Origin: Candidatus Latescibacterota bacterium
Lineage (GTDB): Bacteria > Latescibacterota > UBA2968 > GCA-2709665
Assembly: GCA_965219995.1 (NCBI GenBank)
Contig: CBDCOX010000002.1
Span: 3,936,001 to 4,000,000, forward strand
Reading direction: 5' to 3'
DNA length: 64,000 bases
Part shown: positions 45 through 4,980 of the stretch, one piece after another
Position numbering within the stretch: the stretch's first letter is position 1
Layout: each line of letters opens with the position of its first letter
Program-made: the position numbers and the translations under genes
Notes under the pieces: model-generated
Seen by the model: the letters and a program-made list of their open reading frames with translations, nothing else
Told to the model about the DNA's origin: nothing
Databases searched by the model: none

Positions 45-3000
45 CTACGCAACAACTGCGGCGGCTTTTTCTTTTAGTGCGGGCAGCAGTTCGTCGGCCG
101 CTCGTTCGAGGGCGGCGAGTGCCTCATTCACGTTCTCCAGGTCGCCTTTGCGCGCCATGGTTTCCAGCCGCAACGCCGCCTCCACGGTCGAGTTGGCAAG
201 AAAGACGGCCGCCGAACCCTTCAGCGTATGGGCCGCGCGCCGCAGCAGCGTGGCATCGCCTTGATGGACCGCCCGTTTCATTTCCTTCAGGTGCCTGGCG
301 TATTCGCTGACAAACAGCCCCGCCAGTTCGCCCAGGATCGCCTCGTTCCCGCCAACCTGTTCCAGGGCGCCATGCCAGTCGAGTGCGCCGTCAACGTCGG
401 GGTCCTCCGGCGGTGCGCCGTCCGAAGAAACGTCGTTCTCCACGATATCGAAGAGGTCTCCCGCCCGGACCGGTTTTGGGAGATAGTCATCCATCCCCTC
501 TTCCAGGCACCGCTCCCGGTCTCCCTGCATCACATGGGCCGTCATCGCCGCTATTCGAACGTGTTCCCCGGTCGACCGCTCCCGTTCTCTGATGATCCGG
601 GTCGCCTCCAGCCCGTCCATCTCCGGCATCTGGATGTCCATCAGGACCAGGTCGAACGTCCCGTTCTCCAGCGCCGTAAGTACTTCCCTGCCGTTATTGA
701 CGGCCGTAACCCGGTGGCCGCGCGGCTCAAGCAGGTCCACAATCACTTTCCGGTTGACCTGCCCGTCTTCGGCCAGCAGAACGCGACGCCTCATCGCGGC
801 CGGTAACGGTTCCGGTAAAGCCCGGACGTCCAGGGTCTCTACAACACTCACCTCGAGAGCGGCCAGGGTGGCATCGAGCAGGTCTGATTGCTTGACAGGT
901 TTCGTAAGACACTGTGTAAACTCCAGCGTGTCGCACCTCACCGCGTCGTGCGTTCTCCCCGCGGACGAAAGAATCAGTATCGGTACATCCTTCAATGCGG
1001 CATCTTCCCTTAGGCGCTCGGCCAGAGAGAACCCGTCCATATCCGGCATCACCGCATCGAGCAGAAACAGGTTGTACGGCAGACCCGCCTCGCCGGCCTT
1101 ACGTACCGTGTCCATCGCGGCCGGCCCCGAATCCGCCACGTCGATTTTCATACCCCATGTTCCCAGCATTTCCTCGAATATGAACCGGTTCGTGCGGTTG
1201 TTGTCCACCACCAGCGCGCGGAGTCCCACCAGAGTCTGGAGGTCGGCCGCAGACCGCTTCGCCGGCTGAGGCCGGGCCTCGAATTGCGCCGTGAAATAAA
1301 ACGTACTTCCTTTTTCGGGTTCGCTTTCCACCCACATCCGTCCGCCCATCATCGCGGCCAGCTGAGATGAAATCGCCAGACCGAGTCCCGTCCCGCCGAA
1401 CCGCCTGGAAGTCGACGAGTCCACCTGGCTGAAGGACTCGAAGATGAGCTTCTGATCGTCAGGCGCAATGCCAATGCCCGTATCCCGGACAAAAAACCTC
1501 AGACACACCCTTTCTTCGTCCCGGGAGTCCACCTGGACGTCGACCAGCACGTCGCCTTTCGTCGTGAACTTGACAGCGTTGTCCACCAGGTTGATGACGA
1601 TCTGCCGCAATCGCCCCGGGTCGCCCAGCAGCCGATCCGGAACATCGGGCGCAATATGGCATGCCAGTTCCAGCCCCTTCTGCGTTGCCTTGACCGCCAG
1701 GGTCTGCACGGTGTCTCCCAGCGTATCCCGGAGATCGAAGCCGATCGATTCCAGTTCCAGCCTGTCCACCTCGAGCTTGGAAAAGTCCAGAATGTCGTTC
1801 AGCAGCGCGAGCAACGCCTCGGACGACTGCCGGCTCAACTTGAGATACTCCCGCTGTTGCGGCGTCAGCTCCGTATTGCCAAGCAACTCCGTCATGCCCA
1901 TGATACCGTTCATTGGCGTGCGAATCTCGTGGCTCATGTTGGCCAGAAACTCGCTCTTTGCGCGATTCGCCTTTTCCGCTACGTCCTTCGCTGTCTGCAA
2001 CTCCGCTCCGGAACGTTCCAGGGCAACGGTGCTCTTCTTCAGCGCTTCGTTGGCTTCACGCTCGGCGGCTGCCGTATTCTCCAGCTGCCGGTTCTTTTCC
2101 TGAAGCTGTATTTCGGCGTGCTTGCGCAGTGTGATATCCCTCACCGTGCCGATCATATGTACGGACTGCCCCGCGCTGTCGCCGAAGACGCGCCCCTTGT
2201 TTCCCAGCCATCGTATCGTCCCGTCGGGCCATACAACCCGGTGCTCAACTTCAAAGCCCACCCGTTCCTTGATCGTGCGCCGCACCGCGCCGCGGACCAT
2301 TTCCCGGTCTTCCGGATGCACGAATCCGTAAAACGCCTCGCGCGTACCTCCGAATTCGTCCGGCTTGAGACCGAACAAAGGCGCCACCAGGTCCGACCAG
2401 ACCAGTTCTCCGGTAAGCAGATTCGAATCCCAACTCCCCATGTGGGCGGCTTCCATCGCCAGCTTGAGCCGGGCTTCGCTCTCCCGCAATGCCTGTTCCG
2501 AGCGCTTCCGTTCGGAATCCAGGTTGGCGAGCGACCGGGCGTACCACCAGATCAGGATATTCAGTGCGACGATCACCCCCAGAGAGAACAGCGACATACC
2601 CGACGCGAACCCCAATATCACTTCGCCGTGAGGCCAGAGCCAACCCAGCGCCAGCGGAATCAGGAAAGCGGCCGGCAGCAAACGTCGCGCCATGGACCCG
2701 CCGGCCGTCGAACTGACAATGGTGGTGGTTGGTTCGAGGTCGGGCCGGGAAAGAAACACGCCAATGCACAACAGGCCGAAGGCAAGCGTTGTGACGGCGC
2801 TCATCTGGAGGTCCCACGTCACTTCTCTGGGGGAGAGCGTCAGATAAAAGTGCCCGACCGCATAACCGCACGATACGATCGAGGCGGCAGACAGACACGT
2901 CTGTGCGGGCCAGGCATTTCCTCTGAACCGGAAATGCCAGAGAAGCAAGGCCAGGCCGATCAGGGCGAAGTTGCACGCTTCATTGCGCAACATATGCCCC

Positions 3001-3330: not shown

Positions 3331-4980
3331 CTATGGGAAGACGCCTCTCAGGAGCTTCGCCTGAGTCACGCGGTGAATGCCCTCTATCAGCGCCGCTGTA
3401 CGCATATCCAGCCCATCGCGCTCGGACCGGTGTATCGTCCGCCGGAACGCGTGGAGCAGTATCTGCCTGAGCCGCTCGTTGATTTCGTCGAGGGTCCACA
3501 TGTAATTCTGGGTGTCCTGCACCCACTCGAAATAGGAAACCGTAACCCCTCCGGCGTTTCCGAGCACGTCCGGAAGAATAAACACGTCCTTGTCTTTCAG
3601 GATTTCGTCGGCCTCCAGTGTGGTGGGGCCGTTGGCGCCTTCGGCCAGAATCCTGCATGAGATGTTCTCGGCATTGTCCACGGTGATCTGATTCTGCAGG
3701 GCCGCGGGTACAAGAATGTCGCACGGGATCTCAAGCAATTCCCGATTGCTCACGGCGTCGCCGCCGGTGTAACCTTCCAGAACCTGGTTTTCATCCGTAT
3801 GCCTCAGCAGCGAATCCACGGACAGACCATCTGGGTTGTAAATGCCGGTGGTCACGTCGCTCACGCCCACGAGCCTGACCCCGCAGGCGTTCAGAAACCG
3901 CGCGACATTGCTCCCCACGTTCCCGAACCCCTGGACGATGGCGGTCGCGTTGGTCAGGTCCATCCCGATATGTCTGGCCGCTTCCTCCACGAGATACACC
4001 AGCCCCCGTCCCGTCGCCTCGCGGCGTCCTTCGGAGCCGCCCAGCACCACCGGTTTGCCCGTTACGACCGCGGGCACTGTATGTCCCATCTGGTGGCTGT
4101 AGGTGTCCATCATCCACGCCATAACGTGTTCGTCCGTGCCCATGTCCGGCGCGGGGATGTCCTTTTGCGGTCCGATCACGTCGATGATCTCCGACGTATA
4201 ACGGCGTGTCAGGCGCTGCAGTTCGGTACGAGAGAGGACGGTGGGGTCAATCCGGACGCCCCCCTTGGCGCCGCCGAACGGGAGGTTCATCAAGGCGCAC
4301 TTCCAGGTCATCCACATGGCCAGGGCGGTTACCTCGCCCAGGTTCACGTCGTGATGGTATCGAACGCCGCCCTTGGTGGGCCCCATCGTCAAGAGATGCT
4401 GGATCCGGTAACCGGCAACCGTCTCCACGTATTCGTGTTCGTCCCGCCGGAACGGAAACGTGACGACGTGGGTGCGCTGGGGAAAAAGCAGCCGCTGCCG
4501 GATATTGTCATCCAGTTCCATCAGGTGGGCGGCCTTCAGAAATTGCTGCTGCGCCAACCGGAACATGGGCGATTCCCATTCGGCGTGCTGCGCCCGGCTG
4601 CGCTCCACGGCGTATCGAATCGACCGCACCAGCAACGCGCCGTTCATATTCGACTTGACGAGATAGTCCTGCGCGCCGGCTTCGACGGCCCGCGCCGCGA
4701 GTTTGATGTCCTGCAGACCGGACAGGATCACAACCGGCAGGTCCGGATATGGCGCGCGGACCCGGAAATACGTGTCCAGGTCCTCGCTGTCGGGCAGCAC
4801 GAGGTCCAGCAGCAACAGCTCATACCCGTACGCCGCAAGCCGGTTCAGCCCTTCCGCGAGCGTGCCCGCCGAATCCACCTCGAACTCCGGGCCCTCGGAT
4901 TTGGCAAGCAGTTCCCGAATCAGGCGGGTGTGAAGCGGATTGTCCTCAATCAGCAGCGTCTTCAGGCTTTTTCCTGGCAT
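3331..4980 (-). CDS. Receiver (REC) domain fused to a Glu/Leu/Phe/Val (most likely glutamate) dehydrogenase
   Basis: Residues ~1-127 form a REC domain (LLIEDN, LLLLDLVLPD, VVILSG, DYLVK). The remainder has GDH motifs GPTKGGVRY, MTWK, FGGAKGG, DIPAPDMGT, VTGKP, QGFGNVG, EGANGP, NAGGVTVSYFEW. Confidence 0.93.
   Translation of the reverse strand: MPGKSLKTLLIEDNPLHTRLIRELLAKSEGPEFEVDSAGTLAEGLNRLAAYGYELLLLDLVLPDSEDLDTYFRVRAPYPDLPVVILSGLQDIKLAARAVEAGAQDYLVKSNMNGALLVRSIRYAVERSRAQHAEWESPMFRLAQQQFLKAAHLMELDDNIRQRLLFPQRTHVVTFPFRRDEHEYVETVAGYRIQHLLTMGPTKGGVRYHHDVNLGEVTALAMWMTWKCALMNLPFGGAKGGVRIDPTVLSRTELQRLTRRYTSEIIDVIGPQKDIPAPDMGTDEHVMAWMMDTYSHQMGHTVPAVVTGKPVVLGGSEGRREATGRGLVYLVEEAARHIGMDLTNATAIVQGFGNVGSNVARFLNACGVRLVGVSDVTTGIYNPDGLSVDSLLRHTDENQVLEGYTGGDAVSNRELLEIPCDILVPAALQNQITVDNAENISCRILAEGANGPTTLEADEILKDKDVFILPDVLGNAGGVTVSYFEWVQDTQNYMWTLDEINERLRQILLHAFRRTIHRSERDGLDMRTAALIEGIHRVTQAKLLRGVFP

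Follow-up and report, generated by a model that had tools for sequence, protein, structure and literature searches.

Response regulators with an enzymatic output include the CheB receiver-methylesterase, the PleD and WspR receiver-GGDEF proteins, and REC-PP2C proteins. Like these, the fusion analyzed here (REC-GDH) combines an N-terminal receiver (REC) domain possessing a full phospho-site with a catalytic domain, although its output is not a signalling enzyme but a central metabolic one, glutamate dehydrogenase (GDH), which is probably hexameric and would be fed by an HPt relay. The enzymatic part shares its fold and about 43-52% identity with the class-II hexameric GDHs of Thermotoga maritima (1b26), Thermus (GdhA/GdhB), Bacillus (RocG/GudB) and plants (GDH1), displaying NAD-type motifs as in AtGDH1 and leucine-site residues as in Thermus. 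In contrast to REC-GDH, none of these enzymes carries a receiver, their control being exerted by GltAB/GltC binding, leucine, AMP-APRTh or expression. The GarA route of mycobacteria targets a different, large GDH family, and, to our knowledge, post-translational control of bacterial GDHs otherwise relies on partner proteins or allosteric ligands. The fusion is reportedly also listed in the 2010 census of Galperin. The P2CS database (2009; PMC2716373, Table 1) places GDH, as a 'probable' EC 1.4.1.3, among two-component enzymes; this is the same enzyme class as in REC-GDH, and bears out the original prediction that the architecture might appear in domain censuses, although the P2CS passages concerned do not go beyond the listing and are silent on a cognate kinase, on mechanism and distribution, and on experiments. 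No experimental study of REC-GDH was found in the literature, of which subscription papers and bioRxiv supplements could contain one; the accessible text of the ALR paper and its six supplements does not name the family.

The window (the whole stretch of 64,000 nucleotides that was analyzed) harbors the REC-GDH gene next to a kinase gene (Table 1). Open reading frames and Pfam matches agree with the original prediction that the GDH gene ends shortly before a membrane kinase with PAS, two REC domains and an HPt. The two genes probably form an operon; contigs that come from RNA libraries of relatives (identity about 95-96%) span both genes and one crosses the gap, although such contigs cannot demonstrate transcription or a single transcript, and a scan for promoters and terminators at the cassette gave results at chance level. 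That the fusion is an assembly chimera was rejected, since its junction is bridged by independent contigs from two other studies (X5 record 23, 4298-4796, 1 difference; X6 record 29, 4031-4826, 2 differences) and all 120 homologues listed are fusions; the intergenic gap is likewise bridged (X5 record 22; X6 record 27).

Table 1. Features of the REC-GDH cassette (positions refer to the window, residues to the encoded proteins).
Feature	Position	Strand	Basis
Unorthodox hybrid histidine kinase, 1089 aa, TM-PAS-HisKA-HATPase-REC-REC-HPt	45..3314	-	
HPt, aa 996-1076 (H1029)	87..329	-	
Kinase receiver 2 (D893)	441..782	-	
Kinase receiver 1 (D753)	870..1214	-	
HisKA (452-515, H462) and HATPase_c (564-678)	1281..1961	-	Pfam and motif position
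PAS_3, aa 304-391	2142..2405	-	Pfam
Multi-pass membrane sensor, aa 1-260, at least 5 hydrophobic segments	2535..3314	-	
Intergenic gap, 16 bp, between REC-GDH gene and kinase gene	3315..3330	.	
REC-GDH fusion gene, 549 aa	3331..4980	-	ORF and Pfam
GDH coenzyme domain and C-terminal helices, aa 314-546; R319, GFGNVG 351-356, SDV 374-376 (NAD-type), S482	3343..4041	-	
GDH substrate/oligomer domain, aa 167-296; K203, K227, K239, D279	4093..4482	-	
REC helix 5 continuing into GDH N-terminal helix, aa 114-153, kink near S137-P138	4522..4641	-	
Receiver domain, aa 9-116; E12, D13, acceptor D59 (codon 4804-4806), S87, Y106, K109	4633..4956	-	

REC-GDH matches Response_reg (residues 9-116; 59.4 bits, cut-off 30.2), ELFV_dehydrog_N (167-296) and ELFV_dehydrog (314-546). 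Its canonical receiver set is complete (acidic pair, acceptor Asp, S/T, aromatic switch residue and Lys), which substantiates the claim that E12/D13, D59, S87 and K109 are all in place, and a helix-1 motif, N14-P15-x-H17, is also present. The nearest profile matches of this receiver are REC-REC and REC-kinase proteins, and it belongs to the subclass GAQDYL.K...RYA.ER, whose helix 5 runs on into a helical linker. The AF2 model (pLDDT 86.3, pTM 0.80) has helices 114-136 and 138-153 in series, and its best Foldseek match is 1b26 (target TM 0.91); a complex prediction with two copies of residues 1-165 scored 0.00 and was used neither for nor against any reading. In the GDH part, both ELFV domains and the GDH fold were confirmed. 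The three Lys, the Asp, the Arg and the Ser (K203, K227, K239, D279, R319 and S482) align with solved GDHs, the Lys in GPTKGG and the Ser in VTVS singled out earlier being K203 and S482, and we take the roles of all six to be those in the Clostridium enzyme; with no catalytic residue lost, the protein is by this criterion not an inactive subunit of the Thermus GdhA type. R260 and D292 are counterparts, by sequence comparison, of the Thermus leucine-site residues. Scores below the curated equivalog cut-offs for GdhB_Halo (494 vs 620) and GdhA_Arch (475 vs 750) rule out those subfamilies only, as both models are archaeal. A GFGNVG motif in combination with SD plus a hydrophobic residue marks NAD preference, and with GFGNVG and SDV the enzyme looks NAD-type, its role in the cell probably being catabolic.

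The kinase retains all its phospho-sites at their motif positions (H462, D753, D893 and H1029) and has the HisKA-HATPase-REC-HPt layout, with His, Asp and His sites, that defines unorthodox (tripartite) kinases. It shares this relay with BarA, GacS, ArcB and TorS, but differs from them in its two internal receivers, its sensor, and its adjoining partner, an enzyme rather than a transcription factor. BarA is the best NCBIfam match, yet 479.8 bits against a cut-off of 890 led us to reject BarA/GacS orthology, and an unlinked partner of the BarA-UvrY kind was likewise rejected, the NarL-type candidate adjoining its own GAF-HisKA_3 kinase. The sensor (residues 1-260) matched no Pfam family, was 35-44% identical to the sensors of eight related kinases, and retrieved only unnamed clusters in an Atlas search (0.87-0.95).

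An HPt domain serves a downstream receiver, and the kinase is the only HPt protein detected in this genome, just as REC-GDH is its only detected ELFV-family dehydrogenase. In agreement with the earlier statement that no DNA-binding response regulator is visible in the window, no receiver domain was found there beyond those of REC-GDH and the kinase. A cognate regulator just left of position 1, which would have spoken against the original prediction, was not found, the 20 kb on that side containing no REC, histidine kinase or HPt. Elsewhere in the genome, the closest receivers are some 320 kb away on the left and 305 kb away on the right; a few receivers in the genome without an adjoining kinase (sigma54-type, AraC-type and one single-domain) are possible further HPt targets. 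GltB and GS were found in the genome, so that GS-GOGAT is present, and a genome search found no large NAD-GDH.

Among the best 120 homologues listed (68-91% identity, a set biased toward intact proteins), all have the REC+GDH architecture, the residues E12, D13, D59 and K109 and the six GDH residues K203, K227, K239, D279, R319 and S482; S/T87 is present in 119. In four same-genus pairs of the nine for which dN/dS was computed, values of 0.07-0.24 indicate purifying selection on both REC and GDH domains. The joining of the two parts could be passive, a receiver heading a kinase operon having joined GDH by chance and without effect on it, and the receiver does occur alone beside the kinase, as GDH occurs alone (L013, L015). 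Such an origin is nevertheless very improbable, given that the fusion is maintained over several phyla, that the K109-F147 spacing is 39 residues in two homologue sets (130/130 and 93/94), that the helix-4/strand-5/helix-5 face of the receiver is conserved, and that GDH-side positions including L148 and K149 are fixed in 55/55 linked and 0/28 REC-less proteins, a difference to which kinship also contributes.

General loss of Asp59 or of the kinase neighbor among homologues, which would have counted against the original prediction, was not seen. Of 60 judgeable non-redundant REC-GDH loci, 52 have an HPt no more than 4 kb away, versus none of 73 REC-less GDH loci; it is fused to the kinase in 28 loci and free beside HK-REC(-REC) in 17, while in the other seven it stands alone, forms a REC-HPt protein or is truncated where the contig stops. 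Within the host family of 21 genomes, the 17 that have REC-GDH are also the 17 with an HPt match. In a tree of the kinase cores, all 48 linked ones group in a single clade (SH-like support 0.953), and distances between kinases correlate with those between GDHs (r=0.75, 46 pairs; 0/999 permutations). HPt identity is 41% among linked proteins and 29% to unlinked ones, a weak comparison because its profile was built from linked HPts and L215 was mislabelled as unlinked. Eight full-flank loci have no linked HPt, six of them keeping E12/D13/D59/S-T87/K109, and the helix-1 motif NPx[HYF] occurs in 45/52 linked versus 1/8 unlinked loci, its seven absences among the latter spanning only about three lineages and seven linked loci also lacking it. 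In one subclade, whose retrieved flanks contain no linked kinase, either D13 and T87 were then lost (L010-L012) or the whole REC (L013, L015). Neighborhood, co-inheritance and motif co-loss in these sequences strongly support the predicted wiring from kinase through HPt to REC-GDH. The 'membrane signal' of the original prediction did not stand as a generality, since partner inputs vary (CHASE, dCache-HAMP-PAS, MHYT, YfiR-like, GAF-PAS, PAS-only and REC-REC), the sensor domains being exchangeable within the single clade of linked kinases. GDH and kinase were not found in one protein among the 150 representatives listed, and a candidate of this kind, P0207, was rejected as a REC-PAS kinase without GDH. 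A conserved third cassette gene was also rejected, the upstream ORFs being unrelated (His_biosynth/HisF family, DUF1295, aldo-keto reductase and others).

We therefore favor, with moderate confidence, a phosphorelay of the His-Asp-His-Asp type, encoded by two genes, in which a hexameric GDH, probably dependent on NAD, acts as the terminal response regulator, Asp59 being phosphorylated by the relay and a helix of fixed length transmitting the change to the enzyme so as to gate glutamate breakdown. The kinase would autophosphorylate at H462; from there the phosphate would travel via one of the kinase's own receivers (D753 or D893) to H1029 of the HPt, and thence to Asp59. The Ser87/Tyr106 switch would then shift helix 5, which is continuous at fixed length with the GDH N-terminal helix, altering domain opening and closing or hexamer packing, and conversion of glutamate to 2-oxoglutarate and ammonium would be gated in a cell that assimilates nitrogen via GS-GOGAT. 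By analogy with CheB and PleD, we lean slightly towards phosphorylation activating the enzyme or relieving its inhibition. Mechanical coupling is suggested by a linker of almost invariant length and by the uninterrupted helix; the counterpart N-terminal helix of Arabidopsis GDH1 is described as bending between open and closed states (PMC7326016). The same two features speak against a decidedly unlikely alternative, that phosphorylation acts on proteolysis, localization, assembly or partner binding of GDH (for instance with GOGAT as a counter-enzyme) rather than on catalysis, leaving the activity of the purified enzyme unchanged, and neither a GOGAT nor a protease gene recurred among the neighbors scanned. 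Passages on CpdR, a receiver serving as a protease adaptor (PMC9981736), and on the Bacillus GudB-GltAB complex (bioRxiv 10.1101/2021.04.12.439528) offer precedents for it, and it is compatible with the solo and degenerate derivatives described below.

In one genus, 29 of 31 genomes contain the receiver alone, without GDH; of the 27 cases that could be checked, 26 have it next to the kinase. This solo receiver derives from REC-GDH by deletion of GDH, is under purifying selection, and has an orthologous adjoining kinase; it has lost E100/Q104 and, at the end of helix 5, the conserved YAxER, which suggests that those residues serve coupling to GDH. Catalytic residues are lost in six of 83 full-length non-redundant REC-GDHs (L130, L131, L184, L199, L226 and L228), three of which are still kinase-linked, and at least five of ten REC-GDH cluster representatives are similarly degenerate. 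These GDHs have lost K203, K239, D279 or R319, but keep an intact receiver and most oligomer/leucine-site motifs (TRRY/SRRF, WxMD and the C-terminal RGLFP), with dN/dS of 0.14-0.28. Several lineages retain the relay although their GDH is no longer intact, so that its task may go beyond switching the enzyme, and the retention of receiver and kinase after GDH loss hints at a second signalling role. Both kinds of derivative would suit a trigger enzyme, for which parts of published accounts supply precedents in the control of GltC by Bacillus GDH (PMC6978683) and in Thermus GdhA, an inactive regulatory subunit (PMC9570180). Here, the ligand state of GDH (glutamate, 2-oxoglutarate, NADH, leucine) would tune phosphate gain or loss by the receiver, making GDH a metabolite-tuned sink or hub of the relay, the relay's real output then lying in a protein interaction of the receiver or in a second regulator; as a two-way node, the relay would switch glutamate catabolism while the hexamer feeds its ligand state back via six receivers, the degenerate and solo lineages having retained signalling after dropping catalysis. 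We regard this as rather unlikely, since all six catalytic residues are intact in the other 77 of the 83 proteins (one with S482C counted as intact), a second terminal receiver occurs in few cassettes (L005, L129, and L229/L152/L183), the solo receiver has shed its presumed coupling residues, and derived forms may merely have been rewired after the loss.

The REC-GDH and kinase arrangement is thus widespread and already catalogued, and apparently unexplored by experiment: direct control of a central metabolic enzyme by Asp phosphorylation appears in catalogues, with no test found in the literature searched. The cassette occurs in cultured strains that are harmless, namely of Halomonas stenophila (L007), Lujinxingia vulgaris (L014) and Gimesia maris (P0119), which makes testing with purified proteins feasible, and the natural series of intact, kinase-less, receiver-decayed, receiver-less, GDH-degenerate and solo-receiver forms supplies controls that already exist in nature. 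Whether ATP is wasted in a glutamate futile cycle by a cell using GS-GOGAT depends on how its GDH is controlled post-translationally, and since the sensors are exchangeable, glutamate flux might be placed under a chosen signal in a modular way.

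The receiver (REC)-glutamate dehydrogenase (GDH) fusion, REC-GDH, and the adjoining hybrid histidine kinase are encoded in tandem on the minus strand, separated by 16 bp. Pfam places the receiver at residues 9-116 of REC-GDH, followed by both GDH domains, and all residues named in the original prediction are present. The kinase comprises PAS_3, HisKA, HATPase_c, two receiver and HPt domains and retains the phospho-sites H462, D753, D893 and H1029, while the part N-terminal to these domains contains five or more hydrophobic segments and matched no Pfam family. This part forms a multi-pass membrane sensor domain of no named family, in which the motif TxGGxxARRLLP is conserved; the copy in the window lacks part of a loop that its relatives have. 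Near-identical contigs from two other studies (sponge and marine metagenome) span both the REC-GDH junction and the intergenic gap, so the fusion is real and an assembly artefact is ruled out. No further receiver was found in the window, nor within about 300 kb, and the 20 kb left of position 1 contain no receiver that could serve as a conventional cognate regulator. In the host family, REC-GDH is preceded by aldo-keto reductase genes (the window, L127 and L128; L-numbers denote loci of homologues from other genomes), which probably reflects local synteny only.

Positions of the features discussed (P-numbers, representatives from the cluster search)
Feature	Position or locus	Strand	Remark
REC-GDH ORF, 549 aa	window 3331-4980	minus	ORF call
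Kinase ORF, 1089 aa	window 45-3314	minus	ORF call
Membrane sensor domain	window 2535-3314	minus	
Aldo-keto reductase gene	window 5223-6206	minus	
Solo receiver, 123 aa	L259:6145-6516; likewise L260-L265	plus (L259)	genus g27
Degenerate REC-GDHs with intact receiver	L130, L131, L184, L196, L199, L226, L228; P0147, P0171, P0176, P0187, P0193		
Same-clade kinases without GDH	L269:6519-11442, L270:3907-8893		divergent to REC-HPt / REC-HATPase_c_2 (anti-sigma-like) gene
Chemosensory cluster	L005:1620-11644		
Free HPt or REC-HPt behind REC-GDH	L149:8588-9034, L218:1787-2233, L129:9631-10440, L216		
DUF4954-DUF6819 and receiver protein	L229:5364-7989, L152, L183		upstream of REC-GDH

REC-GDH is a real and conserved feature. 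The REC plus GDH architecture was found in all of the best 120 of 8000 scored homologues (68-91% identity), whose source-given names include Latescibacterota, Gemmatimonadota, Planctomycetota and Gammaproteobacteria. Throughout this set, which is skewed to intact proteins, the acceptor D59, on whose retention the original prediction depended, is invariant together with E12, D13 and K109 and the GDH residues K203, K227, K239, D279, R319 and S482; S/T87 occurs in 119. The distribution is patchy: with just 3-9 candidates scored per genome, full-length REC-GDH was detected at phylum level in 22 of 153 genomes for the host, 6 of 401 for L005 and 13 of 301 for Lujinxingia, and at order level in 2 of 301 for Halomonas. 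Purifying selection acts on both the receiver and the GDH domains (four same-genus pairs, dN/dS 0.07-0.24).

The same REC-GDH and kinase pair occurs in 14 of 14 other genomes of the genus. Removal of 13 same-genus copies and of duplicate receivers from 119 REC-GDH ORFs left 94 non-redundant loci: an HPt lies within 4 kb at 52, a contig end cuts the kinase in 3, 8 have neither HPt nor kinase in flanks of 3.5 kb or more on both sides, and flanks are too short to judge in 31. Among 73 loci encoding a GDH without REC, 47 of them with complete flanks, none had an HPt. The linked HPt is kinase-fused at 28 loci, a free gene beside an HK-REC(-REC) at 17, and alone, in REC-HPt form or cut at 7. Gene order and side relative to REC-GDH vary, and the partner sensors are diverse (CHASE, dCache-HAMP-PAS, MHYT, YfiR-like, GAF-PAS, PAS only, REC-REC in a chemosensory cluster, and the unnamed membrane domain of the window), with a constant HK-REC-REC core. 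In a midpoint-rooted FastTree phylogeny, built without a topology test, a single clade (SH-like support 0.953) unites 48 linked kinase cores with one from a separate contig and excludes 41 other kinases. Kinase distances correlate with GDH distances (r=0.75, 46 pairs), which is evidence of co-inheritance rather than co-evolution. Of 21 host-family genomes, 17 have REC-GDH, and an HPt match is present in exactly those 17. The host assembly (98.6% complete, 7.6% contamination) yielded the kinase as its sole HPt and REC-GDH as its sole ELFV dehydrogenase; GltB and GS were both found, and a large NAD-GDH was not. The kinase is very probably the partner of REC-GDH, wired as originally proposed.

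REC-GDH closes a chemosensory cluster in L005 (MCP, CheA, CheB, REC-REC-HK-REC-REC-HPt), and at four loci only a free HPt or REC-HPt follows REC-GDH, no kinase being seen in the vicinity. Three loci have DUF4954-DUF6819 and a 250-aa receiver protein immediately ahead of REC-GDH, and in L267 DUF4954 is followed by REC-HPt without GDH. A free HPt gene also recurs immediately behind a mandelate racemase/enolase-family gene (L266, L273, L274), accompanied by HK-REC in L266 and L274 and with a TonB receptor upstream in L273.

In the GDH tree, from which the second GDH of L129 was left out as too short and in which REC-less loci were thinned, REC-GDHs split from REC-less outgroups (support 0.996), and for one REC-GDH subclade none of the flanks fetched contains a linked kinase. 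Receiver helix 1 is part of the surface contacting phosphotransfer partners; its NPx[HYF] motif is present at 45 of 52 linked loci, 7 being without it, versus 1 of 8 unlinked loci, whose losses represent only about three lineages, and it decays in the kinase-less subclade. Further along this subclade D13 and T87 are lost in L010-L012 and the entire receiver in L013 and L015. Such decay is the behaviour expected of a real phospho-input once its donor goes. Cyclopropane-synthase-type methyltransferase genes recur upstream of kinase-less REC-GDHs of different lineages (L010, L011, L130).

The converse was also found. In genus g27 of the same class, a solo receiver lies, at 7 of 7 fetched loci, directly upstream of the kinase orthologue, which has the same membrane sensor. 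It occurs in 29 of 31 genomes. Twenty-seven genomes were common to both searches, and in 26 of these it shares a contig with the HPt, about 3 kb away (compared by eye); REC-GDH was found in 0 of 28. The solo receiver, a derivative of REC-GDH, has the family motifs NPIH and DSQEL, no longer has the YAxER end of helix 5, nests within REC-GDH receivers (enclosing clade support 0.92, weak toward the tips) and is under purifying selection (dN/dS 0.07-0.33, 21 pairs). Other, unlinked GDHs (40-45% identity) are present in the five g27 genomes checked. Catalytic residues are missing in 6 of 83 full-length non-redundant REC-GDHs, namely K239M in L130, L131 and L184, D279G in L226, and K203L, D279G and R319F in L199 and L228; the receiver is intact in all six and the kinase kept in three. 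At least 5 of 10 cluster representatives likewise have a degenerate GDH. These GDH parts, which retain most oligomer and leucine-site motifs, are under relaxed yet purifying selection (dN/dS 0.14-0.28, three pairs) and are possibly regulatory subunits or sensors. In another genus, same-clade kinases have REC-HPt and a REC-HATPase_c_2 protein as neighbours (L269, L270). Given the solo receivers, degenerate GDHs and GDH-less same-clade kinases, the relay has outlived the enzyme more than once. Among the rivals to gating of GDH catalysis by the relay, a two-way role of REC-GDH as trigger enzyme or sink is unlikely, control of GDH stability or partners, not catalysis, is less likely still, and a passive fusion is very improbable.

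A 2010 census reportedly includes REC-GDH. The original suggestion that it might appear in domain censuses was borne out by P2CS, which in its Table 1 gives EC 1.4.1.3, marked probable, among the enzymes of two-component proteins (PMC2716373). Galperin et al. 2018 describe fusion to standard metabolic enzymes as frequent among bacterial receivers (PMC5847659). No experimental study of REC-GDH was found in the literature searched, subscription papers lying outside its scope. REC-GDH is a catalogued, putative variant of the enzyme-output response regulators.

The AF2 model of REC-GDH (130-row alignment; pLDDT 86.3, pTM 0.80), whose GDH part matches Thermotoga GDH, has receiver helix 5 (114-136) running directly into the GDH N-terminal helix (138-153), and K109 and F147 are spaced 39 residues apart in 130 of 130 and 93 of 94 sequences. 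The N-terminal helix of Arabidopsis GDH1 bends between open and closed subunits according to a study that also gives a NAD-specific pattern, to which GFGNVG and SDV of REC-GDH conform (PMC7326016). R260, D292 and R545 align, with a one-residue numbering offset, with the leucine-site residues reported for Thermus (PMC9570180), a lead only, as the same residues are common among class-II GDHs. We consider it reasonably probable, inferring transfer, coupling, direction and signal, that the relay would phosphorylate D59 and that the link between helix 5 and the N-terminal helix would couple phospho-D59 to GDH, gating a catabolic enzyme and so limiting a futile cycle with GS-GOGAT.
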